A DNA stretch of 40,985 nt, taken from IMG/VR virus record IMGVR_UViG_2563366942_000017, positions 1 to 40,985 of that record, one strand, 5' to 3'. The DNA is from a virus (Duplodnaviria; Heunggongvirae; Uroviricota; Caudoviricetes). Position numbers and translations under genes: made by a program. The notes beneath the pieces were generated by a model. The model saw only the letters and a list, made by a program, of their open reading frames with translations. It did no database searches and was not told the DNA's origin. Positions 6,801 through 29,852 of the stretch are shown here, one piece after another. Every line of letters starts with the position of its first letter. Position 1 is the first letter of the stretch.

Positions 6801-6952
6801 TGTGTAAAGCGCACCTATTCTATGGTGGGCTGTGTGGGGGCACCGAAAGGTGCGCCGGGTCCTTTGTAGCCGGTTACGCCAACCCTGCACAGTTCACCAC
6901 CAACCGATTGGCGTCGGTAGTGGTGATTAACCTAACTACAAAGGTGATCACT

Positions 6953-8740: not shown

Positions 8741-8744
8741 AACA

Positions 8745-8763
8745 AGGCCGCGAAAGCGGCCTG
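8745..8763 (-). terminator. Hairpin terminator downstream of antirepressor gene (minus strand)
   Basis: GGCCGC-gaaa-GCGGCC hairpin; T-rich tract follows on minus strand. Confidence 0.45.
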
Positions 8764-8786
8764 TGACATGTCACGCTAGTTTCGTT

Positions 8787-9057
8787 TTGCACGTCCCTGT
8801 GCCGCCGTTCTGTCAGAAGAACCCTGCTTTGTCGTTGATGTATTCCGCGTGCGTCTGGATATCACGCAGGCATTTGCTCACACCGACGATGTAGCAGAAC
8901 ATGGTGGTCAGCTCCGCCGCCGCGCCCGATACATCGTGCCCGTCTTCCTGTAACTGGTTCAGCAGATTCATCAGCAGTGAGTTCTCCGTCAGGCCGAGAA
9001 CACCCGACGGCGAATGAATCAGACTGCGGTAGCCTGGCTTCAATGGATAACCATAAC
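8787..9057. repeat. Inverted repeat arm 2 (3' end of second antirepressor gene plus ~25 bp)
   Basis: Reverse-complement match to 7395..7665; boundaries approximate. Confidence 0.6.
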
Positions 9058-9751
9058 ATTTTGTCTGTGTTTTAATTGCCTCACGAAGCGCATCTAACAT
9101 CTTGACTGCCACTTCATCATTCTCTGATGCAGATCCAGCAGGGAGATACTCCCCTTCAAGCGGAACCCGAGCAACAAGAGACAACGCTTCGGCAAATTGA
9201 TCTTCACCAATTTCTTTGTACGAACAGCCAAAATGAGATTTCAGTGACGACCACATGGTGATCATCGCCTTAGCCTGTTTTTCTTTTGGCAGAGACTGAC
9301 CGCGACTCATGACGAGTTGTTTAATGGCTTCCTGCTGTTCAGTTGTTATTTTACCCGGCAACGCCTTTTTAGCTTTGCGTGGGTTAACCACATGGCCTTT
9401 AGTCCAGTACTCGTAGAGCACATCGTCACACTCTTCCTGATACTGGATTACCTTGTCGCGGATTTCAGGGCGGACTTTGTTAGGGCTGATGCTGTTCAAC
9501 CAAGCTGCCAATTTTCGTAAAGCCATACAAATCATGGCTTGCACCCCACCGGCAGAAGGTATGGTGATTTCCACCATACCCTTCGAGAAGCGTTGAGAAA
9601 TCTTCTTATGTTGAGATTTCCAGTCTAGCCCCATTCCCTCAACGATAGGTTTCATTGGGGTATACGGTTCGCCGTTGTGATTGACAACATAAAGCTCTGC
9701 GCCGTGGAATGGCACGTTGATAGTAGATACTGCTGTTGCTATACTCGTCAT
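8813..9751 (-). CDS. Antirepressor (Ant-like), distinct N-terminal domain, shared C-terminal module
   Basis: N-terminal NVPFHGAELYVVNHNGEPYTPMKPIVEGMGLDW resembles antirepressor N-domains; C-terminal 77 aa identical to ORF 6953..7639; sits downstream of Arc-like gene as in P22 arc-ant. Confidence 0.65.
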   Translation of the reverse strand: MTSIATAVSTINVPFHGAELYVVNHNGEPYTPMKPIVEGMGLDWKSQHKKISQRFSKGMVEITIPSAGGVQAMICMALRKLAAWLNSISPNKVRPEIRDKVIQYQEECDDVLYEYWTKGHVVNPRKAKKALPGKITTEQQEAIKQLVMSRGQSLPKEKQAKAMITMWSSLKSHFGCSYKEIGEDQFAEALSLVARVPLEGEYLPAGSASENDEVAVKMLDALREAIKTQTKCYGYPLKPGYRSLIHSPSGVLGLTENSLLMNLLNQLQEDGHDVSGAAAELTTMFCYIVGVSKCLRDIQTHAEYINDKAGFF

Positions 9752-9823
9752 GTCGTTAATTCCTATACGTAGTTTTACGATACTGAAGCCCTGACGGTCT
9801 GGCCACCGTGGGGCTTCGCTGTT

Positions 9824-9991
9824 TTATGCCACGCTATTCTTCTCACCAGTGAGTCCATACACTTTCCTCAGCTGATAGATAATCTCTGTATTGAACTTTC
9901 GGCATTCTTTTTCGCCATTTCTTTCAATAGCTAACTTCACATCGTCCGGAAAACGAACTCGTCGTTGACACATCTCTTTTGCTTTTTGCAT
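9824..9991 (-). CDS. Arc-like ribbon-helix-helix repressor
   Basis: SD AGGAG before ATG 9989-9991; 55 aa; RVRFPDDVKLAIERNGEKECRKFNTEIIYQL fits Arc/Mnt RHH pattern (beta-strand then two helices). Confidence 0.55.
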   Translation of the reverse strand: MQKAKEMCQRRVRFPDDVKLAIERNGEKECRKFNTEIIYQLRKVYGLTGEKNSVA

Positions 9992-10006
9992 TTCATATCT
10001 CCTTAG

Positions 10007-10065
10007 CCCCACCGTGGGGCAAAATAATTGTCACACCGTGCGTCATTGATGTCAAGCACACGGTG
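10007..10065. promoter_or_regulatory. immI-like operator/promoter region with CACCGTG palindromes
   Basis: GCCCCAC-C-GTGGGGC palindrome at 10007-10020, CACCGTG at 10034-10040 and its inverse CACGGTG at 10059-10065; a related GGCCACCGTGGGGC lies at 9801-9814 between arc-like and ant. Confidence 0.45.
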
Positions 10066-10111
10066 AGGCATACTTCAATCATTGCAAGTAACTCAATATT
10101 TGGTGAAGAAC

Positions 10112-10543
10112 ATGAGCAGAGAAGATCCACAACTAAGGATCAGACTTCCCGTCGAAGTAAAAGAAAAAATAGAAATTTCTGCAAAAGCCAATAAGCGATC
10201 AATGAACGCTGAAATAGTACAACGTCTTGACACCAGCTTTCTGAAAGATATTCATGAAGATGACGTAATTTCTGCTTATGAAGCAAAAATCATTGCAAAC
10301 AATGCACGACATGAAATATCAAATATTATTTTCAAAAGAACCTTTAATGAAATTAATAAGAAAATAACACTTGGACATACAAGTTTTTATATAAACCTTA
10401 ATGACCTTGAACTGGAATCACTTGCAGATAATGATTACCAGATCATCTTTGAAAAAACATTTAATAAGCTCAATGAACTAGGTTACATCATCTGTGAAAA
10501 CTCATGGGATGCAGATGGTTTTGGAATTGAAATACCTGAATAG
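10112..10543 (+). CDS. Mnt-like RHH DNA-binding protein with ~95-aa C-terminal extension
   Basis: N-terminus RIRLPVEVKEKIEISAKANKRSMNAEIVQRL matches Mnt/Arc RHH motif; divergent from arc-like gene; ORF track start is TTG, internal ATG 10112 preferred. Confidence 0.55.
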   Translation: MSREDPQLRIRLPVEVKEKIEISAKANKRSMNAEIVQRLDTSFLKDIHEDDVISAYEAKIIANNARHEISNIIFKRTFNEINKKITLGHTSFYINLNDLELESLADNDYQIIFEKTFNKLNELGYIICENSWDADGFGIEIPE

Positions 10544-10606
10544 GAAGAACAAAAGGCGTGTACATATTACACGTCTTTAATACAATTGAAAAACGCCACA
10601 TTACTG

Positions 10607-11197
10607 ATGTATGTTACAACAAGGAGCGATATTTTGAAAACCATATCTATATTAAAGGTTGCATTAGGCGTCGCTATTATTTTGACTCTCTCAATATTGT
10701 TTTATTTTTACCACAAACAAACTGCTATTGCTCTTGATAGTCACGCGGCAAACTCATTTTTCTCAGAGTACATAGTGCCGCTATCAGGAAGCGGTATAAC
10801 AAATAAATATACTGACTATGACATCAAATATGGAATTGATGATGGGGAGACTATTGTATTACATGTAATCATTAAAAACCTAATGACAGTAAATAAAAAT
10901 ACAGACTTCAACGATAAAAATACAATACATCACAACAACAGCAAAACATTAATTTCTTATAGTAGCAACATCTATACGGATAAATGCCTAAAATACATAT
11001 CAGAAGATACAATAAAAGAAACCCGCGAAAAGTTAAAAAACATATATTGTGCATCCGGCAGTTTTCACAAATTATCGCCGCAAGAGCGTTTATTCTACGA
11101 AGCAAGAAAACAACGTAAGTCAATAATATTACATTATTATGCTGATTCAGGGGAGACACTCATATTTAATATTGGGGTTTCCCCTGAATCATGCTAA
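10607..11197 (+). CDS. AT-rich membrane-anchored protein of unknown function (superinfection-exclusion/defense candidate)
   Basis: N-terminal TM helix ILKVALGVAIILTLSILFYFY; very AT-rich compared with flanking structural genes; start ambiguous (ATG 10607 or TTG 10634 with AAGGAG SD). Confidence 0.45.
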   Translation: MYVTTRSDILKTISILKVALGVAIILTLSILFYFYHKQTAIALDSHAANSFFSEYIVPLSGSGITNKYTDYDIKYGIDDGETIVLHVIIKNLMTVNKNTDFNDKNTIHHNNSKTLISYSSNIYTDKCLKYISEDTIKETREKLKNIYCASGSFHKLSPQERLFYEARKQRKSIILHYYADSGETLIFNIGVSPESC

Positions 11198-11208
11198 AGG
11201 TGTTTAAC

Positions 11209-14200
11209 TCACCGCATCACCGGATCCACCTGGTTTATTAGTGGCGCAATCCAGAACAGGTTATTGCCGGGTATCAGGGTTCGGACATTATGCACAATAC
11301 GATCACCGGCATCACCATTCAACACTCCTGCGGTCACATCAATGATGCTATCCGCAAGACCAAATGACGGTCCGAATAGAGATCCTACGAATCCACGACT
11401 GGCATACCTAGACTGTGTGCCAGTGCCAAATAAAGCCCCCAGCCCAACAGCACCACCAGTAGCCTTTTCAGCCATATTGTTATATTCCATCAATGGCCCA
11501 AGAATACCGGATCTATCTATACCCTCAAGCACCAGCTTCTCTGGTGACCAGTCAACATTTTTCCCTTTCGATGCTTCTTTAAGCGCATAGACCAGTGAGC
11601 CAAGAGCAATCTGAAATGCAGTGCCATAATAAAATTGCGCAGTTCCTTCCTGTAACCCACCAAGTAGCGCACGGTTGTATGAAGCCGTTGTGAATGATTT
11701 AAACTGAAATATCGTTCGCCCCATTGGAGTACTCGCCCATAAAGGTGTGTCACCAATACCGGGGGTGATGATAGTGTTATTAACGTCTTTCAGAACCGCT
11801 GACTGGAATACTCCGGCAACGTACTGATCGTCCCATTTATCAAAGTTACCAATGTGCCATCCATCAATTACCTCACCATGTTTCTCGAACTCACTGCGAA
11901 TACGCGCAGCCATATTGTCGTTGATACCGAGTTTTGCCATGCGACGTGCAGAAAACGCACCAGACAAAATACCGTCTGACGTGAGCATTCCGTTCATGGA
12001 TTTGTTTATGTCATTAAATCGATCCATGAGTGTCAGCTTGCCGAAGGCATCAGTAATTCGCTCCATTCCTGCTTCGACTGCTGTTGTCCTGGAAGAACTG
12101 TCAACAAGATCACCAATTGCACGAGAACGTGAATGTAGTACAGTTTCCAATCCAATCCCCATCTTCAACATCTCTTCTTTGCTGGCCTTAAATGCCGGTG
12201 ATTGGGATATCTGAGAAGCATAGCCTTTCATGGAGTTACGGAAACCATTAACCATAACCCCTCTGGCCAGATCTGGAATAGCTGATACTGTCATTCCACC
12301 GAGTTTGGTCGTGAAGTTCACATCCCGCAGAAAAGCGCCAGCACGAACAAAAAACGAAGACGGGTCATCAGGCATACCATATGTACCAACAAGACGATCG
12401 CGTAATGCTGTTATGTCTCTGAGATCATTTGCTCTTGATTTTGAAAGTCTGGACTGTTCTTTCCGTAATTCCTTTTCGTACTTTCGCATTAATGAATCGA
12501 GTTTACCCTGAGGAACAACTTCACCATTGCTCTCATAACGTGCTTTCAGATTTGCCACACTTTCGTCATATTTCGCCTTTATTTTTTCAGGCACTTCCCG
12601 TAACAGACTGTCATATTCGTCCTCAATTAATTGCAGACGCTCTGTCATAGTTCGTTTGCCAAATGTTCTCGTCAACTCAATTTCTGCTGCCGCTTCACGG
12701 ATATGACGTTGTAGAACGTAATTCACATCACTTTCGAGATAATCCCTGATAAGACTATCAGGCACATTTAATGTTCTTTCTTTCGTACTACCTGCGGCTT
12801 TTACAGAAAATACGCTGACAAAATCCTGTGGAACCTTAGCACCAGTAATTTTATTAATTACGATATCCGCTGCAATTTCAGCATCCTCAGGATCCAGTGT
12901 TTTATTGCCTCTCGACCACCAGTCAACCAAAATACGTCGAAATTTATCGCGTTCACTGATTATTTTTCCAACTTTATATATACGTGGGAAATAGCTTGCC
13001 TGGCCTAATGCTTTCAGTTCTTCATCTGGCGGCAATAAACCAAGCTTTTGCATTTCAACCTTCACCCGATTTAATACAGTTCGCATCGCCTGCGCCGTTT
13101 CCTGAACAACAGGATTAGCATGCACATCACCGCTTCGCATAGCATTCCCAACCTGCTGACGAAATGAATCAAAACTCATGTCACCACCATCAGCTTTATA
13201 CTTTGCGTATGCCTGTTTATTTCCGACAACAACAGCAGCTTCTTCACGCTGCCATCCACGTGTACGGGTTTCTACAGCTACCGGTGTTTCAATCCCCCTT
13301 TCATTTCCTTTAAGGGTGAAATTATTTTCGGCTAACTCCAGCGTTGTTTTTCGCACTGTCTTGGACGGAGACTCCATTAACCTTGTCAAAGGAGTAAGAT
13401 AGCTCCCTGCTTTCCATGCAGCCTTTCCAACCACCCCACCGGAAACAGGGGTTAAATCATCCAGAGTCGCTGTATCAATTTTCATAGCACCAACACTACC
13501 ACCATCAGAAAGCGAAGCGGCAGCCCTGTCAGTCGCTGATGTAATGCTCATATTATCAAGAGCATCAGCAACCTCACGCGTGGCTGCAGCCCGGACGGAT
13601 GGCGAAAGCGCAACACCAGCACTGGCAAACACGCCGCTCATCATCGCACCCGCTGCAATGTGAGCGGCACTTTCACCCCATGAGCGTGTTATTTGCTGAT
13701 TATTCAGCACAACCTCGCTTAATGCTGTACCGGCTGCACCAATCGCAATCTGTGAGCCAATACGCGCCAGTGCCCCTCCTTGAGCACCGGGGATAAACAT
13801 TGACGCAACAGTAACCGGATCCATTCCCGCAGCAATACTGGCAAGGGTTCCAACTACGCCAGCATCAGACAATAAACGTCTGTCTTCATTTTCATCATCT
13901 ATCTGCTGCTTAATCCACGCCGTTTCCTCTGGCGATCGGGAATCTGCAAATTTCGCCCCCCAGTATTCATAACCGTGCAACTCATTTTTATCAGCATATG
14001 GGTTATAACCTTCGACCGGTTCAAACTGTCTGGCTGGTCGGAAAAAACCAGCCAGAATATTGTTCTGTCGCATTGCAGCCCCCCATACGGAAGGCTCCGG
14101 TGGCAATGGCTCAGGATTAGCCCCTTCCGGAAGGGCAACATCAAACCCAGTTTGTTCCGGCAAAACATTACCTGACGGGATCAGTCCGTTATTAAGATCT

Positions 14201-14223
14201 TCAGCTTGTGCATAAACTGGCAT
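11209..14223 (-). CDS. Large internal virion / ejection protein
   Basis: 1004-aa ORF at the end of the internal-core gene block of a T7-like structural module; no recognised catalytic motif. Confidence 0.55.
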   Translation of the reverse strand: MPVYAQAEDLNNGLIPSGNVLPEQTGFDVALPEGANPEPLPPEPSVWGAAMRQNNILAGFFRPARQFEPVEGYNPYADKNELHGYEYWGAKFADSRSPEETAWIKQQIDDENEDRRLLSDAGVVGTLASIAAGMDPVTVASMFIPGAQGGALARIGSQIAIGAAGTALSEVVLNNQQITRSWGESAAHIAAGAMMSGVFASAGVALSPSVRAAATREVADALDNMSITSATDRAAASLSDGGSVGAMKIDTATLDDLTPVSGGVVGKAAWKAGSYLTPLTRLMESPSKTVRKTTLELAENNFTLKGNERGIETPVAVETRTRGWQREEAAVVVGNKQAYAKYKADGGDMSFDSFRQQVGNAMRSGDVHANPVVQETAQAMRTVLNRVKVEMQKLGLLPPDEELKALGQASYFPRIYKVGKIISERDKFRRILVDWWSRGNKTLDPEDAEIAADIVINKITGAKVPQDFVSVFSVKAAGSTKERTLNVPDSLIRDYLESDVNYVLQRHIREAAAEIELTRTFGKRTMTERLQLIEDEYDSLLREVPEKIKAKYDESVANLKARYESNGEVVPQGKLDSLMRKYEKELRKEQSRLSKSRANDLRDITALRDRLVGTYGMPDDPSSFFVRAGAFLRDVNFTTKLGGMTVSAIPDLARGVMVNGFRNSMKGYASQISQSPAFKASKEEMLKMGIGLETVLHSRSRAIGDLVDSSSRTTAVEAGMERITDAFGKLTLMDRFNDINKSMNGMLTSDGILSGAFSARRMAKLGINDNMAARIRSEFEKHGEVIDGWHIGNFDKWDDQYVAGVFQSAVLKDVNNTIITPGIGDTPLWASTPMGRTIFQFKSFTTASYNRALLGGLQEGTAQFYYGTAFQIALGSLVYALKEASKGKNVDWSPEKLVLEGIDRSGILGPLMEYNNMAEKATGGAVGLGALFGTGTQSRYASRGFVGSLFGPSFGLADSIIDVTAGVLNGDAGDRIVHNVRTLIPGNNLFWIAPLINQVDPVMR

Positions 14224-16940
14224 TATTTAGATCCCCACGAAAAGTAATCTTTAAATTTGTCCATACGTTCGTTATGCAGGCGCTGATACTGCTCATCCAG
14301 AGCGCGATGCTTGTCTTTGAAGTTTCGTATAGCCTGTCCACGCATAATTTCTTCCTGCTCGTACTGCTCCCGTTCCTGCTGCATTTTCTTATAAGGTTCC
14401 CAATCTTCTAGTGATGGTTCCCAACGCATAGGACGCCCATGTTTGTTATAAAACGGCTGGACCCGATCGATGCCATTTTCATCCTTAGTTCTTACCATAA
14501 TGGCGTAATCACCATTACGAGGTGTTAACACGTCAGGGGTTATGAATAATTCTCCATTAATACGACTCTCAGGGGTTTTTGTCTCAACTACAGGAGCATT
14601 ACCTGACGTGATCCCAAGCAACGTCGGACTGGTTGTTATAATCTCTTTGCGCTCACCGTACATCAGCCGTTCTTTTTCAGCTTTCCACTGCGCCGCCTGC
14701 CAGCCTGACGGCCCATATTGATAAAGCGCCTCCGGTGCATATTTCATAAACTGCGCTTCTCCGTTAACCTCGCTGATACTCCAGGTGCGGGCTATCTGCT
14801 GGTTGGTCATTTGCTTCGCTACGTCAGCGTTACCACCAGCAACGCGGTAGTTAATGTCATACAGCGTCTGATAGTCATTACGGAATCTAGCTGCTTCCGG
14901 CGTCTGGTCATCCGCAGACGGATCCCAACGGAACCACTGCGCCATATTGCTGACAGCAGAATTCATCGCCTTGCTGCGATTATTTTTGTACTCTTTTGAA
15001 CTCTGCGTTGATGCCAATTGAGCTTTAAGAGCATCGGTCTGGTTGTACGTCAGGTTCTGCGCCTGCTCGATAGCCGCATCAGCAGACATGCCAGAATCTG
15101 TTAGTTGCTTAACAGTCAGATAAAAACCCTGCATATCCTTCGGCATATTTCCAATAGATGCATTGTCTGTTTCATATAACCGACTAAACAAATTCGCTGC
15201 ATTTTTAACCACTTCCTGATTGCTGGATCTGGATACTGCTGAAAGCTGCGTGATGACCTGCGAAGGCATGATGCCAGTCTGAGCCACAAGCCGAACAACC
15301 CCATCATGAGTGGAGGCATCATTAATACGAAAGTTCTGCGCCATTTCTGTGTAATCAGCAGCTTTCTGCATTGATTTGTTGCTTGGGTCTAATTTTTCAC
15401 CTATTGTCAGCGCCTCATTGAATCTGCGTGAATCACGTTGCGCCTGAATTGCTTCATTTGATCGCTGAAGCAATGCAGACAATTTTCCGTAAGCATCGAG
15501 TTTTAACGCATAGTGAGGATCGTTAACCTCAGGCTTCACTTTCTGCATTTCTTCTTGCTGCTGAGAAGGAGGTAAATACTGAATTGCCTGGAATATTCTC
15601 GCGTTATCAATCGCTATATCCAGTTGATTGATTATTTTATCTGCATTTTTTCCATACCCCCTGATGATAGTCTCCTGAGCCGGTATATAATCTGGAACCT
15701 CACCGTTATATAGCTGGGCCATGGTGTTATTAATAGCTGGCTCAAGCTGTTCTAATATTAACTTCCTTTGCTTTTCTATCTGACTATTAGCAAGGTTATC
15801 TATTTGATAAATAGTCAGCGGATCCATTCCAGTTTTATTTTTTCTATATCGGGAAAGCCACCCTTGTGTTTCTGATGGAAGATTTCGGATAAATTCTTCT
15901 TCTGATATTTCACCTTTACGTGGATCACCGACTTTGGCGATCAGTTTATCCACGTTACCCATCCCCCAGTTATATGCTGCTCCGGTCAATATTTCGGAGC
16001 CGTACTTACCATACAGTTGATTTACATAGTCACTGGCGAGCATTTCATGCTGTTGTTCGTCCGTAGGGTTGTATTTAACGCCACGCTTGGCCGCCAGTTC
16101 TTTCCCTGTGCCCGGCATTAACTGGTATTTCCCCTGGGCTCTCTCTCCAGAAGATGTTATCGGTCCTTCAAGAAGACTACCATCAGGATTAAAATGTCGA
16201 TCACCTGATTCAACAAGGCGTATGGCACGCATGTCCATGCCTCCAGAATCATTTTTCTGAAACAGACCATTTAGCCATCCTTCTGGATTGGCAGCGGCAT
16301 AATTCTTCGCCCGCATTTCTGTGGCACGGCGATCATCACTTTCTATTTCTTCCAGAATGCGTTCTTGTGACCATCCCCTGGCAGCTCCATATCTAGCAAT
16401 GGCTACCATTCTGGAATTTCTGGCTAAAGTGGCAGTTTGCGGGTCATTCCAGGCATCCGCTTCATTTTGTATCCATAATTTTCTCGTTGCCTGATATTGC
16501 TCATCTTCATAGGCATTTGTCTGCCCTATCTCATGTCTGAGAACTCCAGTACTGAACTGAATTTTCTGTGTTCTGGCTTGTTGCAAAAACATATTTCTTG
16601 CTGCTTCATCAGTCAATGAAGCAGCTATTTCTTCCACATCCTGATCAAATCCAGATATGTACTCTTGCCCCTTACCAATCGCATTTTTGCCTTGTTGTGC
16701 ATAAAAACCGGTTTGAGGGTTATAAAGACGTTCATTGCTGCGCTGATTAAGCTGAAGGATGGCATCCTGAGACAATGCAACATTCGCTTTCTGCCTGGCT
16801 TCACCATATGCCACCGCATACTGATCTGCGACATTCGCCAGCACCTGACCTGCTTGAGGAACATCGAAGGTCTGAAAACCACCGGTTTGCACACCACGAC
16901 TTTGCACCTGGCGTCCGGATGTAGTAGGAACAACAGGCAT
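14223..16940 (-). CDS. Internal virion protein with lytic transglycosylase (SLT) domain
   Basis: LVESGDRHF...GERAQGKYQLMPGTG...AYNWG resembles the ES...GLMQ(L)MP...AYN motifs of soluble lytic transglycosylases; 905 aa. Confidence 0.65.
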   Translation of the reverse strand: MPVVPTTSGRQVQSRGVQTGGFQTFDVPQAGQVLANVADQYAVAYGEARQKANVALSQDAILQLNQRSNERLYNPQTGFYAQQGKNAIGKGQEYISGFDQDVEEIAASLTDEAARNMFLQQARTQKIQFSTGVLRHEIGQTNAYEDEQYQATRKLWIQNEADAWNDPQTATLARNSRMVAIARYGAARGWSQERILEEIESDDRRATEMRAKNYAAANPEGWLNGLFQKNDSGGMDMRAIRLVESGDRHFNPDGSLLEGPITSSGERAQGKYQLMPGTGKELAAKRGVKYNPTDEQQHEMLASDYVNQLYGKYGSEILTGAAYNWGMGNVDKLIAKVGDPRKGEISEEEFIRNLPSETQGWLSRYRKNKTGMDPLTIYQIDNLANSQIEKQRKLILEQLEPAINNTMAQLYNGEVPDYIPAQETIIRGYGKNADKIINQLDIAIDNARIFQAIQYLPPSQQQEEMQKVKPEVNDPHYALKLDAYGKLSALLQRSNEAIQAQRDSRRFNEALTIGEKLDPSNKSMQKAADYTEMAQNFRINDASTHDGVVRLVAQTGIMPSQVITQLSAVSRSSNQEVVKNAANLFSRLYETDNASIGNMPKDMQGFYLTVKQLTDSGMSADAAIEQAQNLTYNQTDALKAQLASTQSSKEYKNNRSKAMNSAVSNMAQWFRWDPSADDQTPEAARFRNDYQTLYDINYRVAGGNADVAKQMTNQQIARTWSISEVNGEAQFMKYAPEALYQYGPSGWQAAQWKAEKERLMYGERKEIITTSPTLLGITSGNAPVVETKTPESRINGELFITPDVLTPRNGDYAIMVRTKDENGIDRVQPFYNKHGRPMRWEPSLEDWEPYKKMQQEREQYEQEEIMRGQAIRNFKDKHRALDEQYQRLHNERMDKFKDYFSWGSK

Positions 16941-21384: not shown

Positions 21385-21390
21385 TCCTGC

Positions 21391-21410
21391 AATAAAGGGG
21401 CCGAAGCCCC
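21391..21410 (-). terminator. Intra-operon rho-independent terminator after head genes
   Basis: On minus strand GGGGC-ttcg-GCCCC hairpin followed by TTTATT. Confidence 0.5.
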
Positions 21411-21428
21411 TTGTCTGATTCGCGAGGC

Positions 21429-21773: not shown

Positions 21774-21774
21774 C

Positions 21775-22212
21775 TTAACCAGTTACTTTTGAGCGGATCG
21801 GGTACGGCGTATTGGCATCAACATCCAGACTGATACCCGCAGTGAATTTGCCAGCCGTTAGTGGGCCAGTTGCGACGGAGTAGTTAACACGCAGATATCG
21901 CTGAACACCGGCTGGCACCTTTGCAGAAACAACTCGCTTACCTGCTGTCAGGGTGGCCTTTGCCAACGCACCACTATCATAAATAGTGGTCCAAGAGCTG
22001 TTATTCTCACTCGTTTGCAACTGGATGTTTACAGTTGCATCACCGCTTGCCGCGGCGGCTGTGTTAACCAGCGCCCAAAATTCAAGCGGGTAACCCACGC
22101 CGATATCACGACGTTTTCCGTCAATTGGACCGAGATCGATTACGTCAGTAGAAGCCGCGGTATCAGTTACCGCCTGTGCTTCGGAGAACATCAACAGTTT
22201 GTCGGTGATCAT
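21775..22212 (-). CDS. Capsid decoration/accessory protein candidate
   Basis: 145-aa Thr/Ala/Ser-rich ORF directly downstream of major capsid gene. Confidence 0.4.
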   Translation of the reverse strand: MITDKLLMFSEAQAVTDTAASTDVIDLGPIDGKRRDIGVGYPLEFWALVNTAAAASGDATVNIQLQTSENNSSWTTIYDSGALAKATLTAGKRVVSAKVPAGVQRYLRVNYSVATGPLTAGKFTAGISLDVDANTPYPIRSKVTG

Positions 22213-22263
22213 CTTCTTTCTCCATTAGTGGGTCTGTTACGACCCACAGGTTAATAACAGGCG

Positions 22264-23256
22264 TTACACCACGCGGGCTTCTGTTTCCAGAAGCGCATCA
22301 GTTTCACGGATTGGTACACCACGGAATGAAGTCCACCACTCGCCTTCAGTCTCTTTTACGCTGATAGCCAGAGATGTTTTCTCCAGAGACTGCAGATCAA
22401 GAGCCTGGCCTACAGTGCGGTTCATGTAGAACACCGGGCGGCCCATGCCACGGTTTGGAATGCGATGCAGTGCTTTAACCATCAACTTCGCAATATTTGC
22501 GGCAGAGGAAGGTTCTGAAAGATTGCTGACATCGATGTTTGCAATGCGAACAACATAACGCCAGTCACGCAGAGCAAGTCCGTTGTCCCATTTGTAATGG
22601 GTACGGTAGCCTTCGTACTTGCCGCCATTAGCATCTTCCAGTGTCACCTGGCCTTTATCTTCCATCTGGATGCCAGCCTTCTGCCCTTTCGGGAAGATGC
22701 CATGCACGGTGTTTTCGCCCCACACCACTAACCAGATTGAGGTGTTATCTGTACCCGTGCCACCAGCATCAATGATGTTCTGAGCATTACCCGCAGACAG
22801 GCTGGAATAGCGGGAGGACAGTCCCATAAACTGCTGAGGGTTAACGCTGGAATCACCATAAAACAACGTCTGCGCCATCTGCTGATTCATCGCTTCAATA
22901 AATGCACGGTCTTCAGACAGGCGGAATTCGGCGGTATTACCGTTCAGATCAGCCAGTGACTTATCGACTTCAGCATAGGTTTCCAGCATTCCAACGGAAT
23001 CGGTGACCTGCACTGTGGTTGATTTGCTTGGCTGTACGCCATAGTTCAGCAAACGCCAAGTGGCTGAAGGTAAACCAGAACGAATGGTGGTTCGGTGTCC
23101 GGTAGGAAGGTTCCCTTCGACAAAAGGCATATCCTGAAGGATCGGGTTAGTTTGACCGAGAAGCTCGATAATCTTATCGACTTTCCCGTTTGGATCGACG
23201 CGCTTACCCCAGTCAGCCAGCGTTAGCGCAGTTAAGCCTTTAACAGCCATTGTCAT
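22264..23256 (-). CDS. Major capsid protein
   Basis: 330 aa directly after scaffold gene and before small head genes; position and size as in epsilon15/T7-like head modules. Confidence 0.7.
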   Translation of the reverse strand: MTMAVKGLTALTLADWGKRVDPNGKVDKIIELLGQTNPILQDMPFVEGNLPTGHRTTIRSGLPSATWRLLNYGVQPSKSTTVQVTDSVGMLETYAEVDKSLADLNGNTAEFRLSEDRAFIEAMNQQMAQTLFYGDSSVNPQQFMGLSSRYSSLSAGNAQNIIDAGGTGTDNTSIWLVVWGENTVHGIFPKGQKAGIQMEDKGQVTLEDANGGKYEGYRTHYKWDNGLALRDWRYVVRIANIDVSNLSEPSSAANIAKLMVKALHRIPNRGMGRPVFYMNRTVGQALDLQSLEKTSLAISVKETEGEWWTSFRGVPIRETDALLETEARVV

Positions 23257-23264
23257 TTCCTCTC

Positions 23265-23966
23265 TTATTTGCCATAGAGCACTTCGGCCGCACTACGCTG
23301 GCCTTCATTACCACCGGTGACCATGCCATCTTCAGACATCGCCTTTCCGATTTTCACGAACGTTTTGACCAGATCAGGGTGATTACCCAGCCCGGTGGTG
23401 TTCAGATATTCTTTGAGTTCAGGTGTCCCGAACTGGTCAAGCGCACGCTGTGCGGCGCTAAGGTTAGAAATCAACTTGTCGCCACCGATTTCTTTGTCAG
23501 CTTTTACATCCGCAGCCCACTGCTCGGTTGTTTTCTGCCAGGCTTCTGCCTGGCGCTGCTGAACACCTGCCAGAATCTTCGGATAAGCATCAACCAGCTT
23601 TTGCGCTTGCTCGTTGGTCAGGTTAAGTTCTCGCGCCACCGGCTCGAATTCCGTCAACGCTTCTGTATCCAGCTCTACGCCTTCGGCAGCCTGAAACTCG
23701 TACTTCTCAGGCGCACCCTCTGGTTTATCGCCACCCTTTTTTTCATCCTGCTTATCGTTTTCAGGCTTTTTGTCATCAGCAGGTTTATCGCCATCAGCAA
23801 CAGGTTGTGGCTTATCACCTTCCTGTTGTGATGGATCACCAACTGGAGCAGGGGTATCACCTGCAGGCGCTGACGGTTCTGACGCAGCCGGAGCTGCTCC
23901 ACCATCGACTGGCTGCTCATTGCAAAGACGGCGATACAGCAAACGCTCAAATAAATTCATGATCAC
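23265..23966 (-). CDS. Scaffolding protein
   Basis: Acidic, Pro/Ala/Asp/Lys-rich low-complexity N-half with helical C-half; between portal and capsid genes. Confidence 0.55.
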   Translation of the reverse strand: MIMNLFERLLYRRLCNEQPVDGGAAPAASEPSAPAGDTPAPVGDPSQQEGDKPQPVADGDKPADDKKPENDKQDEKKGGDKPEGAPEKYEFQAAEGVELDTEALTEFEPVARELNLTNEQAQKLVDAYPKILAGVQQRQAEAWQKTTEQWAADVKADKEIGGDKLISNLSAAQRALDQFGTPELKEYLNTTGLGNHPDLVKTFVKIGKAMSEDGMVTGGNEGQRSAAEVLYGK

Positions 23967-24259
23967 TCCTGTTCACTGGCCTCTTTGGCCATCTTCAAAT
24001 ACTGTTCAGGGCAATGCGCCATAACGCGCTGAAACAGTTCCAGCGCCAGATTGCGTTGCCCCTCATTAAATGCCATTGCCATAGCATCCATCGGAGAGAT
24101 AGCGGAAAACACACGGCCTTTCTCCAGCACCGACCAGACAACGCGACGCCCCTGTTCACTGCTCATGACAAAGCGAATGTCATCAATTTCACGCTGTGCC
24201 ATGTCACGTTGCTTACGGGCGTTTTCTTCTTTCAGTTGATCGTCTTCGTAATCTGTCAT
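23963..24259 (-). CDS. Hypothetical protein between portal and scaffold
   Basis: 98-aa ORF, start overlaps portal stop (ATGA). Confidence 0.4.
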   Translation of the reverse strand: MTDYEDDQLKEENARKQRDMAQREIDDIRFVMSSEQGRRVVWSVLEKGRVFSAISPMDAMAMAFNEGQRNLALELFQRVMAHCPEQYLKMAKEASEQE

Positions 24260-25935
24260 TGTGATTGCCCACCCTGACCACTAACTGCATTCGCCATAGC
24301 TGACAAAACACTCGGATCCGAAGTTTTAGCTTCGCTTAGCGTCTTGGCGCCCTGTGCCGCCGCCATTCCCATCGCCATCATTTGTTGCTGCTGTTGCTGC
24401 TGTGCCCGTTGCTGGCGAGCCTGCTCAACCTGTTCCTGCGGAACAATGACGGTTGGAGACACTCCGGACATATCAGCGAATGCATCGATCGCCTGATCAA
24501 CGTTGAGTTTGTCGAGAGCTTCTGGTTTCGCTTGCGCAAGTTGACCAATGAAGTTAACCGTGGACGCCAGACTGGACAGGCCGATAGACTTCTGCGCCTG
24601 AGCCATGACGGAAATGTATTCGACCTTCAGGGGCATACCTTCCATCGCGTCAGGCGGTGGCGGCAGCATGTTTTTACGCACCATCATCGAGAAAGCGCGG
24701 TCAATGAGAGGATTAAGACATTCGTCGTTCAGGCGCTCCAGAACCGGCCCCAACATCAGAAGTTTTTCTTCTTTCATTTCGATCACCGCTTCCACAGGCA
24801 TCGAGCGGGTATTGATGTTCTGCAACATCATGAACAGATCGACAAAGTAGGCGCTGTTAATGATTTGACGAGTGTCCTGAATGTCTGCCACCAAATCTGC
24901 TGTACTGGGGTTAACCAGATAAGCAGGCCTGAAACCATCCTGACCAGTAATCTGATCGATATACGTGATGTCGCCAGGAAGAAGGGAGGCACGCTGATTC
25001 TTGAGGGAAGTCGGAGCAACCATCGGCGGATTGGTGGCTTTATCAATCAACTGCGACTTGCGCTTCTGGAGAAGCTGCAATGCCTTAACAGGTCCAAGCG
25101 CCAGCATACCAGGGCATGATGATCCATAAACATCTTCGCCATTAACTTCCCAGCGCGGAGCCATAATTGGAAACTCATCGAATCCGGACTCACGCAACAA
25201 CTTGTCGTTATCGCCACCAACCTCGTAATAAACCGATTTGAATGGCTTGTTCTTGCTATCCAGCTTCGATGTATCGCGGTCAATGTTCGGGTAAACCGAA
25301 TGCATCACTTCAATCCACTTCTCGTAGGTGCCGCTTTCCCACATGCTTTTTACGGATTCGCTGACGTTATTTAGCCCGAACTCCTGAACAAGCTGACGAA
25401 CAGTCATAGAGAACTTGCGAAAACAGGTGTCCACACTGCCACGAGGTGAGTTAGCCAGGTAGTAACTGCCTATCGGGAATGGCATTGTGCGAATGATGTC
25501 CTCATCATCCTCCAGCACTGCCATTGCACCAGTGCTGTATGTGCCTAGGCTTCCGTATAACTGCGGCAGTGACTGATAGAGATTCGACTTATTGAACATA
25601 TCGTTCATGCGGTTCTGCACCGCCTCAAGCCACAACTTAACAGGGCCATAATCCATCATTTCAGGATCTGGCGTAGCCAGGCGAAACCACGGACGCGCGG
25701 GGCTTGTGATGCCTGACATCATGCCGCTGGCGAGAGTGCGCGCCGCCATAGTCCCGGTAGAATCAATAATGCGTGTATTGCGTCGATCGTTACGGTTGAC
25801 CTCAGAAGTCAGAAAGCGGGAACCACGCGGGTTGATGTAATCACTCAACTCGCGCCAGTGCGGCTCGAACGATTGACGCTCGCTTTCAAGTTGTGCGAAC
25901 TGTTTGTTCAATCGCTCTTTAGTTGTTTCCGCCAT
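24256..25935 (-). CDS. Portal protein (T7 gp8 / head-to-tail connector type)
   Basis: 559 aa, poly-Gln acidic C-terminal tail, size and position typical of podovirus portal; follows terminase large subunit apart from the tRNA moron. Confidence 0.75.
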   Translation of the reverse strand: MAETTKERLNKQFAQLESERQSFEPHWRELSDYINPRGSRFLTSEVNRNDRRNTRIIDSTGTMAARTLASGMMSGITSPARPWFRLATPDPEMMDYGPVKLWLEAVQNRMNDMFNKSNLYQSLPQLYGSLGTYSTGAMAVLEDDEDIIRTMPFPIGSYYLANSPRGSVDTCFRKFSMTVRQLVQEFGLNNVSESVKSMWESGTYEKWIEVMHSVYPNIDRDTSKLDSKNKPFKSVYYEVGGDNDKLLRESGFDEFPIMAPRWEVNGEDVYGSSCPGMLALGPVKALQLLQKRKSQLIDKATNPPMVAPTSLKNQRASLLPGDITYIDQITGQDGFRPAYLVNPSTADLVADIQDTRQIINSAYFVDLFMMLQNINTRSMPVEAVIEMKEEKLLMLGPVLERLNDECLNPLIDRAFSMMVRKNMLPPPPDAMEGMPLKVEYISVMAQAQKSIGLSSLASTVNFIGQLAQAKPEALDKLNVDQAIDAFADMSGVSPTVIVPQEQVEQARQQRAQQQQQQQMMAMGMAAAQGAKTLSEAKTSDPSVLSAMANAVSGQGGQSQ

Positions 25936-25949
25936 TTCAATGACTCCGG

Positions 25950-26156
25950 TTACTGACCAAGCAGCGTTTTACCGCTGGTATTAGCGGTTGATGTGTCGCC
26001 CTGAGAACCGGTAAGCAGCGTAGAACTACGACCAGCAGCAGCGCGACGGCGACGTGTTTCTTCGTCGCGGGCATCAACAACGGCGGCATCCTGCTCCTGT
26101 GGTGCTGCCTGAACTTCTGGTGTTGCAGGCACTGATGGTGAGCTACCCATGCACAT
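25950..26156 (-). CDS. Small hypothetical protein upstream of portal
   Basis: 68-aa ORF with GGAG SD; low complexity; weak. Confidence 0.25.
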   Translation of the reverse strand: MCMGSSPSVPATPEVQAAPQEQDAAVVDARDEETRRRRAAAGRSSTLLTGSQGDTSTANTSGKTLLGQ

Positions 26157-26245
26157 ATCAATGACTCCGTACGCAATTAAATTATTACCAATTTAACCAC
26201 ATATGATTTATTTATCGTAGATAGTTGACATTTAACGCACGAATT

Positions 26246-26260
26246 ATTACCTTTCAGGTA
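26246..26260. promoter_or_regulatory. Operator palindrome TTACC-N5-GGTAA (site C)
   Basis: ATTACCtttcaGGTAAG; a TTGACA hexamer lies 17 nt upstream on plus strand. Confidence 0.5.
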
Positions 26261-26582
26261 AGTAAAGGGTTCATTCCGGTTACTAACCTGACTGGCTTGT
26301 CGTTAAATTGAACAGGTGGAGTGAGCTTTTATTTTGAGCAGTACGGCGTATGGCACATGCGCCGATAGCGGTCTGGATACGTTTAAGGGGCACCCTCCCT
26401 TGCTCGGGCAAACGAACCAGGTAGCCGGAATGTGCAAGTCGAGCGGTTTTATTCCGCGCACGGGGATTCACCATCCCGGCGATTCGGTGTGACGCCTCGG
26501 AAGAGACGAGGGTACAACGATGAGAGCATTTATGGAGCCGCGACAAAGTGTGGCGCCTTAACAGGCTAAGTGCTCTCAGCGT

Positions 26583-26659
26583 TGTGGCATTAGCTCAGTT
26601 GGACAGAGCAACCGCCTTCTAAGCGGTTGGTCGCAGGTTCGAATCCTGCATGCCACGCC
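26583..26659 (+). tRNA. tRNA-Arg (anticodon UCU), phage-encoded
   Basis: 77 nt; acceptor stem GTGGCAT/ATGCCAC, D-arm AGCTCAGTTGGACAGAGC, anticodon loop CTTCTAA (UCU), T-arm GCAGGTTCGAATCCTGC, discriminator G, encoded CCA. Confidence 0.85.
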
Positions 26660-26858
26660 AGAATCACGCCTAAGGACCGTGATGCCAGAAGTTCCAGGGG
26701 CTTGGCGGTGATGGTTTCCCTTGAAGGGCTATCACCGCCCTTTTTACAGCAGGACGCCATTGCGATGACTTCATGCTGTAAACCAGTACAGCCACGGAAG
26801 GCATAACTCATTGCTTCCAGTTCGACCGGTTCGCCGGGCATTTTTTTAAGGTGAGATC

Positions 26859-27233
26859 ATGAACGACCAGCAAATCGAAAAAGAAATCGTTGAGAAAGGC
26901 AAAACGGCACCGCGTGTAACACCCGAGAAAATTGAAGGCCTCATTTGCAGTGAGCATTTTTTCACTGCTGCGCAGGGTGACCACCAGGCTAAAGAAGATG
27001 ACCTTATTTATAATCCGGAGCCTTATGTCGAAGCCACCCCTGATGCTCTGCACCTTCTCACTTTCTGCGTACTGGTGCTGAAGAATGGCTTCACCGTCAC
27101 CGGAGAGAGCGCCTGTGCAAGCCCGGAAAACTTTGATGCAGAAATTGGTCGGAAGATTGCCCGGCAGAATGCTGTAAACAAAATCTGGATGCTCGAAGGT
27201 TACTTGCTGAAGCAGAAGCTAAGCGAGCAATAA
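26859..27233 (+). CDS. Phage moron protein, possibly N4 gp49 / Sf6 gp66 family
   Basis: SD GGTGAGA; 124 aa; motif FTVTGESACASPENFDAEIGRKIA recalled as characteristic of that family (unverified); followed by terminator. Confidence 0.4.
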   Translation: MNDQQIEKEIVEKGKTAPRVTPEKIEGLICSEHFFTAAQGDHQAKEDDLIYNPEPYVEATPDALHLLTFCVLVLKNGFTVTGESACASPENFDAEIGRKIARQNAVNKIWMLEGYLLKQKLSEQ

Positions 27234-27252
27234 CACCGTGACATGTCACAAA

Positions 27253-27280
27253 CAGCCAGCCGATGAGCTGGCTTTGTTTT
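27253..27280 (+). terminator. Rho-independent terminator
   Basis: CCAGC-cgatgag-GCTGG hairpin followed by CTTTGTTTT. Confidence 0.5.
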
Positions 27281-27323
27281 ATCCTCATCAGAGGATATCA
27301 ACGACATTATCCCAACCAGCGGA

Positions 27324-28799
27324 TTAAGCATAGGGATCGTAATCTGTGATGGCCTTGCCTTGCTGGTTCTGCTGCCCGGGAATTTGCAGACGCTTAGACA
27401 CAGGGAACGCAAACGTCAGCAGTAGCGCATCGCCTTTACCCGGCGAACGCCCAATCCGCTCCTTGATATCTTCCTTCGGTTCGATAACGATTTTACCATC
27501 CACTCGAACTTTGTACTCTGCCGCCGACAGGTCGTCTGCTGTTTCCTGGTCATCCAGCATGCCGCCCAGCCTCAGCCATGTCTTGCATGAATTGAACATC
27601 TCCCCACGCTTGTTGAGCATCTGCGGGTCAGTAGACGCGCCACCGAACGGAACAAGTTGCCATGTACGACCCCATCCGTCACCGATTGACTTCAGACCGG
27701 TTCCGTAACCGAAGTCGATGAACACCGCGTCAGCCTGATACTGGTCTTCAAAGTCAGCGATACGCTTCGCCATAATCAGATCGTCGGTAGTCTTGTTGCC
27801 AGTCCACAGCACCTTACTGTGTAGCCCCTGCCGCAGGTATATCACCGCGTCATCAACGCCTGAATATGCTGGGTCAACACCGATTATCACCGGAGCATGC
27901 GCCACCTGCGCAGCGGTTACCACCCGTTTCATTGCCTCATCAGTAAGACCGGTAGGGATAAACTGCAATTCAGATGCATCAGGGAATATGCCGCGCACAC
28001 GGATTTTAACGAAGTCGCTGTCTTCCCCGTAGTCATCAACCCATTTCTGCAACTGCTGTTTGTTAGTGCCTTCCACCGTCCGGCTGTCAATCTGCGCAGT
28101 TTTCCAGCGGTGTTTATATTTGCGGAAACATTCGCGGAAACGCCCGGTGTTACGTGTAGGGTTTCCGAACGCCACCCAGATAATCTCAGTGTCTTCGTCC
28201 GTAAGCGCACCCTCAGCAACTTCCCACACCAGATCCGCAATGTTCGACGCTTCATCGAATACCACGATGATGCGTTTGCGCTCGTTGTGTAGTCCGGCGA
28301 ATGCCTCAGTGTTGTGCTCAGACCAGGGGATTGCGTCAGCTCGCCACCGCTTGTCGTGCCCAGGATCATTGCTGTACATCGCGGTAGCGGTACAGGTAAA
28401 CCAGTCTTTCGTGATAGCAAGGTTCGACCACTTGATAATTTCCGGCCAGGTCTTCGTTCGTAGCTGGTTGTCGGTGTTGGCGGTCACCACGACCTTACAA
28501 TCCTCGCAAGTGGACATGCCCCAGTTGATCAGCATTGAGATGAATGCGGATTTACCAATACCGTGACCAGAAGCGCGTGCCAGCATAAGCGGCTGATAGC
28601 GCGTCGCTGGATTCTGCAGGTGATCACGTATCTCTCGGAACGCATCAGCCTGCCACTGACGTGGGCCGGTAGCATGTGCCAGTTCAGTCCCTTCTTCCCC
28701 CCACGGGAACGCATAGAGGGCATAGCCAAGCGGATCGTGAGTGAACCCTGCAATATCCTCGATCAACTGCTCTTCAGGAGATAACGCTGTATCTGTCAC
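27324..28799 (-). CDS. Terminase large subunit
   Basis: 491 aa; Walker A-like GHGIGKS, ATPase and C-terminal nuclease-like regions; immediately downstream of small subunit with 4-nt overlap. Confidence 0.8.
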   Translation of the reverse strand: MTDTALSPEEQLIEDIAGFTHDPLGYALYAFPWGEEGTELAHATGPRQWQADAFREIRDHLQNPATRYQPLMLARASGHGIGKSAFISMLINWGMSTCEDCKVVVTANTDNQLRTKTWPEIIKWSNLAITKDWFTCTATAMYSNDPGHDKRWRADAIPWSEHNTEAFAGLHNERKRIIVVFDEASNIADLVWEVAEGALTDEDTEIIWVAFGNPTRNTGRFRECFRKYKHRWKTAQIDSRTVEGTNKQQLQKWVDDYGEDSDFVKIRVRGIFPDASELQFIPTGLTDEAMKRVVTAAQVAHAPVIIGVDPAYSGVDDAVIYLRQGLHSKVLWTGNKTTDDLIMAKRIADFEDQYQADAVFIDFGYGTGLKSIGDGWGRTWQLVPFGGASTDPQMLNKRGEMFNSCKTWLRLGGMLDDQETADDLSAAEYKVRVDGKIVIEPKEDIKERIGRSPGKGDALLLTFAFPVSKRLQIPGQQNQQGKAITDYDPYA

Positions 28800-29392
28800 T
28801 GATTGCCATCCTGACGTTCTTTCAGTCTCTTCCTGGCTGCCGCTATGCGATCAGCAATTGTCACATTCACATTAACATCCAGGCGTTCTTTGAACGCGTT
28901 GACATCAACATGCTTACCAATCAGCTCAAGGTTCTTCACCTTGTCAGGCCATTTAATTTTTTTGAGGATTGTCTCTATTGAATCCTCGTTCATGTTCATG
29001 ATGGTCGATGACAGATCAAAGCCACTAAGCGTAGTGCGCCAGATTTTCGGCCACTCACGGATTGGTTTAAGGCTCCCATCGTCGTTGAGGATGTCGATCA
29101 CGTCCATCTGGTCGATCTCCACCAGGCGCATGAGAACGTAATCAGCACTGACACGCATTCGTTTGTTGCGCTCCTCCATCAACTCGGCAATCCGTTTTTG
29201 AATGCGTTCATCGCGCATCATGACACTGGCTTTAACTGCCGCTGTATTTGGGGAGAATCCTGCGTTAATCGCTGCCTGAGTCTGGTTTTCAGGCGTTTTG
29301 ATGTATGACTGGCAATAAGCCTCCTGCATTGCTGTTAGTGGCTTAAATTGCGTTGATTTGCGTTTATAGGTTTTAGGTTCAGCAGGCATCAT
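28796..29392 (-). CDS. Terminase small subunit
   Basis: About 199 aa from internal ATG 29392 (ORF-track N-terminal extension is Thr-rich and spans operator repeats); basic helical protein upstream of large subunit. Confidence 0.6.
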   Translation of the reverse strand: MMPAEPKTYKRKSTQFKPLTAMQEAYCQSYIKTPENQTQAAINAGFSPNTAAVKASVMMRDERIQKRIAELMEERNKRMRVSADYVLMRLVEIDQMDVIDILNDDGSLKPIREWPKIWRTTLSGFDLSSTIMNMNEDSIETILKKIKWPDKVKNLELIGKHVDVNAFKERLDVNVNVTIADRIAAARKRLKERQDGNQ

Positions 29393-29409
29393 AACCACCG
29401 TGGTAATAG

Positions 29410-29424
29410 TTACCGTTGTGGTAA
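29410..29424. promoter_or_regulatory. Operator palindrome TTACC-N5-GGTAA (site H) at terS start
   Basis: TTACCgttgtGGTAA; flanked by imperfect copies TAACCaccgtGGTAA (29392-29406) and GGTAATAGTACC. Confidence 0.55.
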
Positions 29425-29435
29425 TAGTACCATGC

Positions 29436-29461
29436 AAAATAAAGCCGCCATAGTTGGCGGC
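29436..29461 (-). terminator. Rho-independent terminator upstream of terminase genes
   Basis: Minus strand GCCGCCA-acta-TGGCGGC followed by TTTATTTT. Confidence 0.55.
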
Positions 29462-29510
29462 AGTATTCAAAACCCGTCAAATTCATCATGCATAATCTAC
29501 TCGTGACATG

Positions 29511-29852
29511 TCACACTATTAATTTCGTTTCATGCCAGCCTTTAGTCACCCAGCATTGTGAGTCACCATTACACGGACATGAATTAACTGGAACTCTCTC
29601 GCCGCACTTACCGCAACGTGTTCTGCTGATCGATTTTATACGCCCGTGCACGCGTGCATCATCCTGGCGGATCAGTAACGCTATATACTCACCAAATTCG
29701 TAAGGCGCACGCCCGGGGCGACGCGTGGCACAGTTACGCTCCAGAATTTCAATTTCCTGAGCATCAAGCACAATCTCCAGCTTACGCACACCAGATGCAG
29801 CTTGTCTGGCTCTCTGAGCGGCTTTGCGCTCTGCTGCTGATTTAGCCATCAA
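29511..29852 (-). CDS. Hypothetical protein with C-terminal Cys-rich zinc-ribbon-like motif
   Basis: 113 aa; CGKCG...CPC motif; last gene before terminator and terminase block; possible late regulator (speculative). Confidence 0.4.
   Translation of the reverse strand: MMAKSAAERKAAQRARQAASGVRKLEIVLDAQEIEILERNCATRRPGRAPYEFGEYIALLIRQDDARVHGRIKSISRTRCGKCGERVPVNSCPCNGDSQCWVTKGWHETKLIV

Follow-up and report, generated by a model that had tools for sequence, protein, structure and literature searches.

A 40,985-base-pair (bp) stretch of viral DNA, record IMGVR_UViG_2563366942_000017 of IMG/VR (hereafter the window), contains a perfect 12-bp palindrome, GTGACATGTCAC, in exactly three copies. The palindrome is the core of a 14-bp dyad, Y-GTGAC-NN-GTCAC-R, which is conserved in temperate phages of unrelated backbones, follows a strict spacing rule and is strongly linked genetically to a single gene family, that of epsilon15 gp49 and N15 gp46. 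The window encodes a member of this family, a protein of 112 amino acids (aa), at 29511–29849 on the minus strand. We consider it slightly better than an even bet (probability about 0.55) that this gp49-like protein is the binder of the dyad and acts as a dimer on DNA. Among known systems, the element is best placed with small dimeric DNA-binding proteins that have dyad sites. The window itself represents an epsilon15-like (Uetakevirus) temperate podophage of Escherichia coli with its late genes on the minus strand, most closely related to TL-2011b, phiV10, and the O157 typing phages.

The copies of GTGACATGTCAC are located at 8763–8774 (copy 1, site C), 27238–27249 (copy 2, site B), and 29503–29514 (copy 3, site A). 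No copy appeared in 100 dinucleotide-preserving shuffles of the window; exact match search together with these shuffles confirmed the three positions given in the initial annotation, a reading of the window made from the sequence alone. A 14-mer, CGTGACATGTCACA, is common to all three copies (on the minus strand for copy 1). In duplex form, the dyad with its spacer of 2 nucleotides (nt) reads TGTGACATGTCACG. When up to two mismatches were allowed, the window yielded a single extra match, at 24196, which is within chance expectation. This one-mismatch copy, GTGCCATGTCAC (24196–24207), lies within the portal/adaptor gene and is kept as coding sequence in phiV10 and TL-2011b.

The dyad is present one to four times per genome in epsilon15, phiV10, the Pectobacterium myovirus ZF40, N15, a Yersinia P2-like phage, and Vibrio phage K303. 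Epsilon15 has GTGACATGTCAC at 2142, 19517, and 39612, in places equivalent to those in the window. Equivalent places hold it in phiV10 (2262 and 19493, with a one-mismatch copy spanning the record ends) and in TL-2011b (11500 and 32282). Among these three phages the flanks vary and the 12-mer is constant. ZF40 has three exact copies, one of them right after the stop codon of the gp49-like homologue. The Yersinia P2-like phage has the form GTGACGCGTCAC on the stop codon of its homologue. The three copies of N15 share the centre TG/CA, one of them lying on the stop codon of gp46, and the N15-like phage Kpn74 has them at the same positions. The three copies of K303 have the centre GC/AC, and one is found 19 nt before terS. 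The arrangement of site A recurs in BUCT711 and in a Klebsiella prophage. Overall, a copy stands at the position of site A in epsilon15, in TL-2011b, in 75 of 80 close viral loci, and in most of 33 loci drawn from distinct bacterial species; the position of site B is kept in epsilon15 (2142), phiV10 (2262), and approximately 55 of the 80 close loci. In phiV10 (19493) and epsilon15 (19517), the motif with its terminator closes the structural operon; in TL-2011b (32282), this unit comes after ant.

Spacing was assessed in two sets of loci. The close set comprised 80 viral contigs with gp49-like homologues at least 96% identical (1.43 Mb in total). It contained 133 matches to GTGAC-N2-GTCAC vs. 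1.4 expected, nearly all of them at the end of the gp49-like gene or approximately 2.2–2.5 kb downstream, and zero matches with spacers of 0, 1, 3, 4, 6, or 7 nt. The diverse set, the 33 loci from distinct bacterial species (0.6 Mb), contained 46 spacer-2 matches vs. 0.57 expected, and all the other spacers of 0–7 nt gave zero matches. In eight reference phages, only spacer-2 matches were found, save for one spacer-3 match in K303. A symmetrized logo was built from 63 distinct sites (126 half-sites). A pyrimidine precedes GTGAC in 122 of the 126 half-sites, and nothing further out is conserved; the centre prefers A/T and is variable, with TG, GC, and AC among the centres. Exact copies numbered 23 vs. 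approximately 0.3 expected, and one-mismatch copies 10 vs. approximately 9. Since the latter occur at chance frequency, the specificity is unusually sharp. No description of the motif, of its degenerate form, or of a 'matS-like' element in phages was found in the literature searched.

The link between motif and gene was revealed by an all-against-all comparison of open reading frames (ORFs) from the window, ZF40, N15, K303, and Yersinia phage YenM, in which the gp49-like protein was the sole family common to all five. The motif overlaps or abuts the stop codon of this gene in epsilon15-like phages, ZF40, N15, Kpn74, BUCT711, and Yersinia P2-like phages, and a copy lies at most 81 nt from the gene end in 24 of the 33 distinct-species loci. 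Nine complete genomes with the gene (0.37 Mb) contained 24 copies. No copies were found in a control of 0.50 Mb from temperate phages that lack the gene, chosen independently of the motif (lambda, P2, parts of P1 and CUS-3, and 27 lambdoid loci). The most divergent homologue, from Aeromonas phage 13AhydR10PP (approximately 30% identity), is accompanied by an altered, non-palindromic site, GTGACCGGACAC, in four copies (116, 809, 2563, and 28983), one of which is 25 nt upstream of the gene; protein and site may have varied together here. Judging from these comparisons, the gene and its sites form a small module that travels among temperate phages of unrelated types infecting Enterobacterales, Vibrio, and Aeromonas. 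The initial annotation had proposed a binding site for a phage or host factor. The conserved, strictly spaced dyad and the candidate gene beside copy 3 strengthen that proposal, with the gp49-like protein as the binder that we infer. Abundance of the motif in unrelated DNA, which had been named as grounds for rejecting it, was not observed in the sampled 0.50 Mb of phage DNA or in 50 kb of the E. coli terminus region (Ter).

The candidate gene is the last of the early-right operon. Its product belongs to phrog_536; the family's sole label in PHROGs and RefSeq is a bare 'transcriptional regulator' without function. The family has 715–1,021 cluster representatives, all unnamed, and is present in 154 of 50,697 phage records. 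No match of the 112-aa protein was found in Pfam (even at E = 5), NCBIfam, PADLOC, or among PDB sequences. Profile searches, two of them aimed at distant homologues and one at the diversity of MatP, returned close relatives only. In the alignment, the N-terminal helix is basic and invariant (ERKxAQRxR), the core is conserved, and the C-terminal tail (CxxC...CxC...C) resembles a zinc ribbon; R8, R13, E32, L36, R43, Y50, C79, C82, and C99 are invariant. An AlphaFold2 (AF2) model with a mean confidence score (pLDDT) of 70 has helices at residues 5–18, 30–43, and 52–67, which fits the layout of a ribbon-helix-helix (RHH) protein. The dyad symmetry and the gene linkage are compatible with an RHH protein on a short dyad operator. 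The RHH regulators Arc and Mnt of P22, CopG, ParG, and TraM differ in that the phage sites lie at the 3' end of the protein's own gene and at other operon ends, not at its own promoter. The phage protein also has the extra basic N-terminal helix and the zinc-ribbon-like tail, and at the sequence level it does not belong to the RHH regulator families.

No compensatory change was found in more than 200 sites, and the half-sites were invariant. The asymmetric centres of N15 and K303 had no fixed orientation to transcription, the Y/R flank rule acted on each half-site and included the non-pairing C...A, and an RNA hairpin formed by the motif would have only 4 bp. Taken together, the invariant half-sites, unoriented centres, per-half-site flanks, and short hairpin favour DNA, most simply a double-stranded DNA site for a symmetric dimer. 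The same features separate the element from N/nut (boxB) sites. An RNA element would be a GUGA-CNNG-UCAC hairpin in 3' untranslated regions, read by an arginine-rich peptide in the manner of boxB and N or serving as a processing or stability signal. It would account for a 4-bp hairpin beside each terminator hairpin, for the arginine-rich N-terminus of the partner protein, and for the location of the motif just past cro in other phages, where lambda has nutR. It is contradicted by the missing compensatory changes, the unoriented centres, and the C...A flanks, and besides the hairpin is very weak and some sites are antisense or inside genes. We regard this explanation as very improbable.

In the window, each copy is located at the end of a transcription unit, near a GC-rich hairpin with a T-tract. 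Copy 3, in the extended form C-GTGACATGTCAC-A, overlaps the TGA stop codon of the gp49-like gene and lies on the minus strand 41 nt upstream of an intrinsic terminator (29436–29461, minus strand; GCCGCCAACTATGGCGGC followed by TTTATTTTG, hairpin 29444–29461). This terminator closes the early-right operon; CI-type operators and terS come next. Copy 2 lies between the 3' ends of terL (27324–28799, minus strand) and of an accessory unit on the plus strand. This unit consists of a tRNA-Arg(TCT) gene (26584–26660) and a Phage_gp49_66 gene (26859–27233), is antisense within the late region, and ends at copy 2 and its terminator. Copy 2 begins 4 nt past the stop codon of the latter gene and 4 nt from the hairpin (27254–27273) of the plus-strand terminator (27254–27281; AGCCAGCCGATGAGCTGGCT followed by TTGTTTTAT). 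A complementary hairpin, with a weak T-tract, is possible in the minus-strand late transcript after terL. Copy 1 lies 38 nt past the stop codon of ant (8813–9751, minus strand) and abuts a minus-strand intrinsic terminator (8737–8762; AGGCCGCTTTCGCGGCCT followed by TGTTTTAA), the hairpin of which (8745–8762) is directly 3' of the copy along the ant transcript. The distances of 2–45 bp from hairpins reported earlier were essentially right, the measured values being 0–41 nt.

A terminator-like hairpin was present within 60 nt of 26 out of 62 sites, compared to 13% of long-ORF ends and 7% of random points. The motif itself was always outside the stems and is not a component of an intrinsic terminator. 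The earlier suggestion of a terminator or antiterminator element retains this enrichment in its favour and is otherwise weakened, since the motif never forms part of a stem and the association is not universal. Terminator adjacency is a correct description of the window lineage and is not the defining property of the motif.

A second dyad, TTACC-N5-GGTAA, has 15 copies in the window with at most one mismatch vs. 0.7 expected (6292, 6672, 7711, 26247, 29392, 29410, 32779, 32841, 34787, 35124, 35172, 35884, and 35946, with weaker copies at 2942 and 6060). The epsilon15 record annotates sites of this type as prophage-repressor sites. Copies stand before terS (29392/29410), before the portal operon (26247), and before the tailspike region, and also within the immunity region, which suggests that late units are under direct repressor control. 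The CI-type operators at 29392/29410 and 26247 lie downstream of sites A and B, with equivalent places in the epsilon15 record. GTGACATGTCAC was itself considered as the 'repressor' site annotated in epsilon15 and was rejected, the annotated sites being this different dyad. From the location at operon 3' ends and from the operator layout, the three copies of GTGACATGTCAC mark the ends of three transcription units.

On this basis, the following mechanism can be outlined. The 14-bp two-fold symmetric site would be read on double-stranded DNA by a protein dimer, and the likeliest reader would be the product of 29511–29849 (minus strand), made late in the early operon. Its three sites correspond to the 3' ends of the early-right operon, of the terS-terL unit where it meets the antisense accessory unit, and of the ant/late end. 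At sites A and B, a repressor-operated late promoter would come next downstream. Docked at three operon ends, the protein could act as a roadblock or insulator reinforcing termination, possibly bridging the sites. Within the claim that the gp49-like protein is the binder, such a boundary or roadblock role in the window phage is a tentative and rather doubtful proposal.

The order of gene, motif, terminator, and terS also resembles the order of Q, PR', and tR' in lambda. In likeness to the antitermination modules of lambda (Q/QBE-PR'-tR' and N/nut-boxB), the regulator gene lies directly upstream of a terminator preceding late genes, and the element is near terminators; the arginine-rich N-terminus and a Cys motif reminiscent of Q add to the likeness. 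Copy 3 could then be part of a late promoter with a loading site similar to the Q-binding element (QBE), and the gp49-like protein a Q-like antiterminator whose target would be the terminator 41 nt downstream. A promoter-like GTGACA-18-CATGAT does overlap copy 3. The CGKCGx5-7CxCxG tail weakly resembles the zinc motif of a lambda-type Q (11240–12019 of Klebsiella phage MK416014), with a non-significant hhalign result (E = 0.01, probability 4%). The dyad differs from the lambda modules: the promoter around it is not conserved, RNA covariation is absent, and its orientation follows no rule. Relatives conserve neither the −10-like element nor its spacing, bona fide Q genes coexist with the motif in ZF40, N15, Kpn74, and MK416014, and the gp49-like protein has no match to Pfam Q families. 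Moreover, the CI-type operators downstream of the terminators suggest repressor-controlled late promoters, and copies 1 and 2 have no promoter context. A Q-like function is thus highly improbable, and the site does not belong to the Q/QBE type. Copy 3 as a late promoter or as a class I/II activator site was rejected as well, since there is no conservation of the −10-like elements that directly follow the motif; the distance from copy 3 to a putative −10 (TACTAT) is 55 nt in epsilon15 vs. 73 nt in the window.

Several observations weigh against the gp49-like protein as the binder or against its proposed role. Scanning of viral contigs with the 14-mer TGTGACATGTCACA yielded 120 partial loci, only 32 of which contain the gene; by our own estimate, the collection being very large, some of the other loci are probably chance matches. 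One conserved class does not stem from chance: Klebsiella lambdoid phages have a single copy on the stop codon of a Cro/YdaS-like gene, and no gp49-like gene was found in the stretches of 17–20 kb analysed. The only complete GenBank genome found for this Cro-type family, MK416014 (29.3 kb), has one copy (7537–7548), the central ATG of which is the annotated start of the next ORF, and the gp49-like gene is absent from it by tblastn and by hidden Markov model (HMM) search. Hence, the motif does not strictly depend on the gene in cis. The predicted β-strand residues of the protein vary among distant homologues with the same half-site. Copies also occur inside coding regions (ZF40 at 5125 and 7622, N15 repA, and structural genes of BUCT711). 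Finally, no adjacent terminator-like hairpin was present at the sites of N15, ZF40, and K303, so the boundary or roadblock role may be lineage-specific or wrong.

The copies inside genes bear on another explanation as well, namely that the motif is a module-boundary 'linker' kept by mosaic recombination, offering a TGA stop and an ATG start on either strand and lacking a binder of its own. Among pairs of related sites, 55% share one flank only, compared to 14–32% at points shifted by 300 or 600 nt. A Klebsiella Cro-type locus (L250) diverges from MK416014 at 10 nt past the motif, the divergence between phiV10 and the window is located at the 5' edge of site C, and the start codon within the MK416014 copy would also agree with a linker. 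On the other hand, the site pairs are not independent and intergenic points are rich in junctions anyway. Homologous exchange needs more than 12 bp of shared sequence, the variable centre (TG, GC, AC) means that the ATG is not general, and copies inside genes are not junctions. The strict dyad, the Y/R flanks, and the exact spacer indicate recognition by a protein. A linker without a binder is therefore improbable.

The Klebsiella lambdoid copies without the gene keep a host protein in consideration as the reader, with MatP, SlmA, or another factor of Enterobacterales, Vibrio, and Aeromonas binding the dyad and the phage gene being linked to it for other reasons. The motif phages infect bacteria of MatP-bearing taxa. 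MatP contains an RHH fold and the phage protein is RHH-like; where the latter has its Cys-rich tail, MatP has a coiled coil. The 112-aa protein lacks the MatP domains PF06303 and PF17414, and hhalign against E. coli MatP gave a probability of 0.2%. The MatP site, matS, has the 13-bp consensus GTGAC[AG]N[TC]GTCAC (PMC3603311; also PMC3116907) and thus the same half-sites as the phage dyad, with a spacer of 3 nt in matS and 2 nt in the phages. Both are perfect dyads of very sharp specificity that occur in few dispersed copies and without a promoter cluster. An earlier survey reported no matS in 500 prophages (PMC3603311); its regular expression could not have detected the 12-bp form.

In 50 kb of Ter from E. 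coli MG1655 (1,500,001–1,550,000), there were four matS sites (1500109, 1505515, 1514954, and 1536807) and no 12-bp form. The spacer-3 form was absent from the window and from the 1.43 Mb and 0.6 Mb of related loci and occurred once in K303. Host and phage spacings appear mutually exclusive. The phage dyads are not matS sites, considering their 2-nt spacer, the missing MatP domains, and their location outside the Ter macrodomain; their carriers are phages and prophages that integrate in many different ways, among them the linear plasmid prophage N15. A phage-borne miniature counterpart of the matS system would comprise a small RHH/zinc-ribbon protein and one to four dispersed sites built from the host matS half-sites, with the spacer shortened by 1 bp and orthogonal to MatP. 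Instead of serving as an ordinary operator, it might organize the phage genome, bridge or tether it, or protect it from chromosome-organizing machinery of the host such as MukBEF, but the chances of this seem slim.

SlmA is the other host protein with a comparable target. The SlmA-binding site (SBS), GTGAGTACTCAC, is likewise a 12-bp palindrome (PMC3020112; PMC3116907) and has its outer four bases on either side (GTGA....TCAC) in common with the phage motif; positions 5/8 are G/C in the SBS and C/G in the phage motif. SlmA needs G, T, A, and G at positions 1, 2, 4, and 5, and a change of G5 strongly impairs its binding (PMC3020112). The phage motif agrees at positions 1, 2, and 4, and its position 5 is an invariant C in all 126 half-sites, which sets it apart from the SBS and argues against SlmA as the reader. 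SlmA is a TetR-family helix-turn-helix (HTH) protein, unlike the phage protein. The host and phage sets of sites do not mix: four matS and no spacer-2 sites in Ter vs. more than 200 spacer-2 sites and the single spacer-3 site of K303 in phages. A host binder also leaves unexplained why the site lies on the stop codon of one gene in at least four unrelated backbones, why that family is the only one common to five phages, and why phage DNA without the gene has zero copies. We consider a host reader of the dyad unlikely.

Two further types of known sites were compared. Sites of the CRP/FNR type were rejected for wrong spacing (TGTGA-N6-TCACA vs. N4 in the motif). In P1, the gene order lpa-pacA-pacB resembles that of the gp49-like gene, terS, and terL (PacB-like). 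The Lpa box is a 9-bp inverted repeat of different sequence (AAGTnACTT, at −22) located at late promoters that have only a −10 element, whereas the phage dyads are not at promoters and the gp49-like protein is unlike Lpa; the dyads are therefore not Lpa boxes. Between lpa and pacA, at LPpac (6472–6483), P1 has TTGACATGTGAC, which matches the motif at 10 of 12 positions and is followed by TTTCGTT. This heptamer is also found downstream of copies 1 and 3 of the window on the plus strand. The resemblance of LPpac is probably a coincidence.

The region around copy 1 has additional features. Matches above the Rfam gathering score were obtained for isrK (6723–6799), C4 antisense RNA (6818–6904), and sar RNA (9753–9820), all on the plus strand. 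The first two lie just upstream of, or overlap, the 5' end of the ORF 6800–7639, which corresponds to the Bro-N gene of TL-2011b, and sar RNA adjoins the start of ant. The window phage thus combines antirepressor controls of the P1/P7 type with P22-type controls resembling immI. A YafO-like toxin gene (7913–8485, plus strand) and an Arc/ParG-like RHH gene (10082–10543, plus strand) flank the ant region as accessory cargo near copy 1. Membership in a defence system was rejected, as PADLOC gave no match.

If the pairing of protein and site is right, an uncharacterized family absent from Pfam would gain a role open to testing and a precisely defined target on DNA. The pair would be very sharply specified and could be used as an orthogonal DNA-binding part. 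The pairing would also explain a landmark that recurs where modules meet in temperate phages of the epsilon15-like, N15-like, P2-like, and other groups. The offset of one bp from matS raises the question of whether these phages avoid, mimic, or compete with the Ter-organizing system of their hosts.

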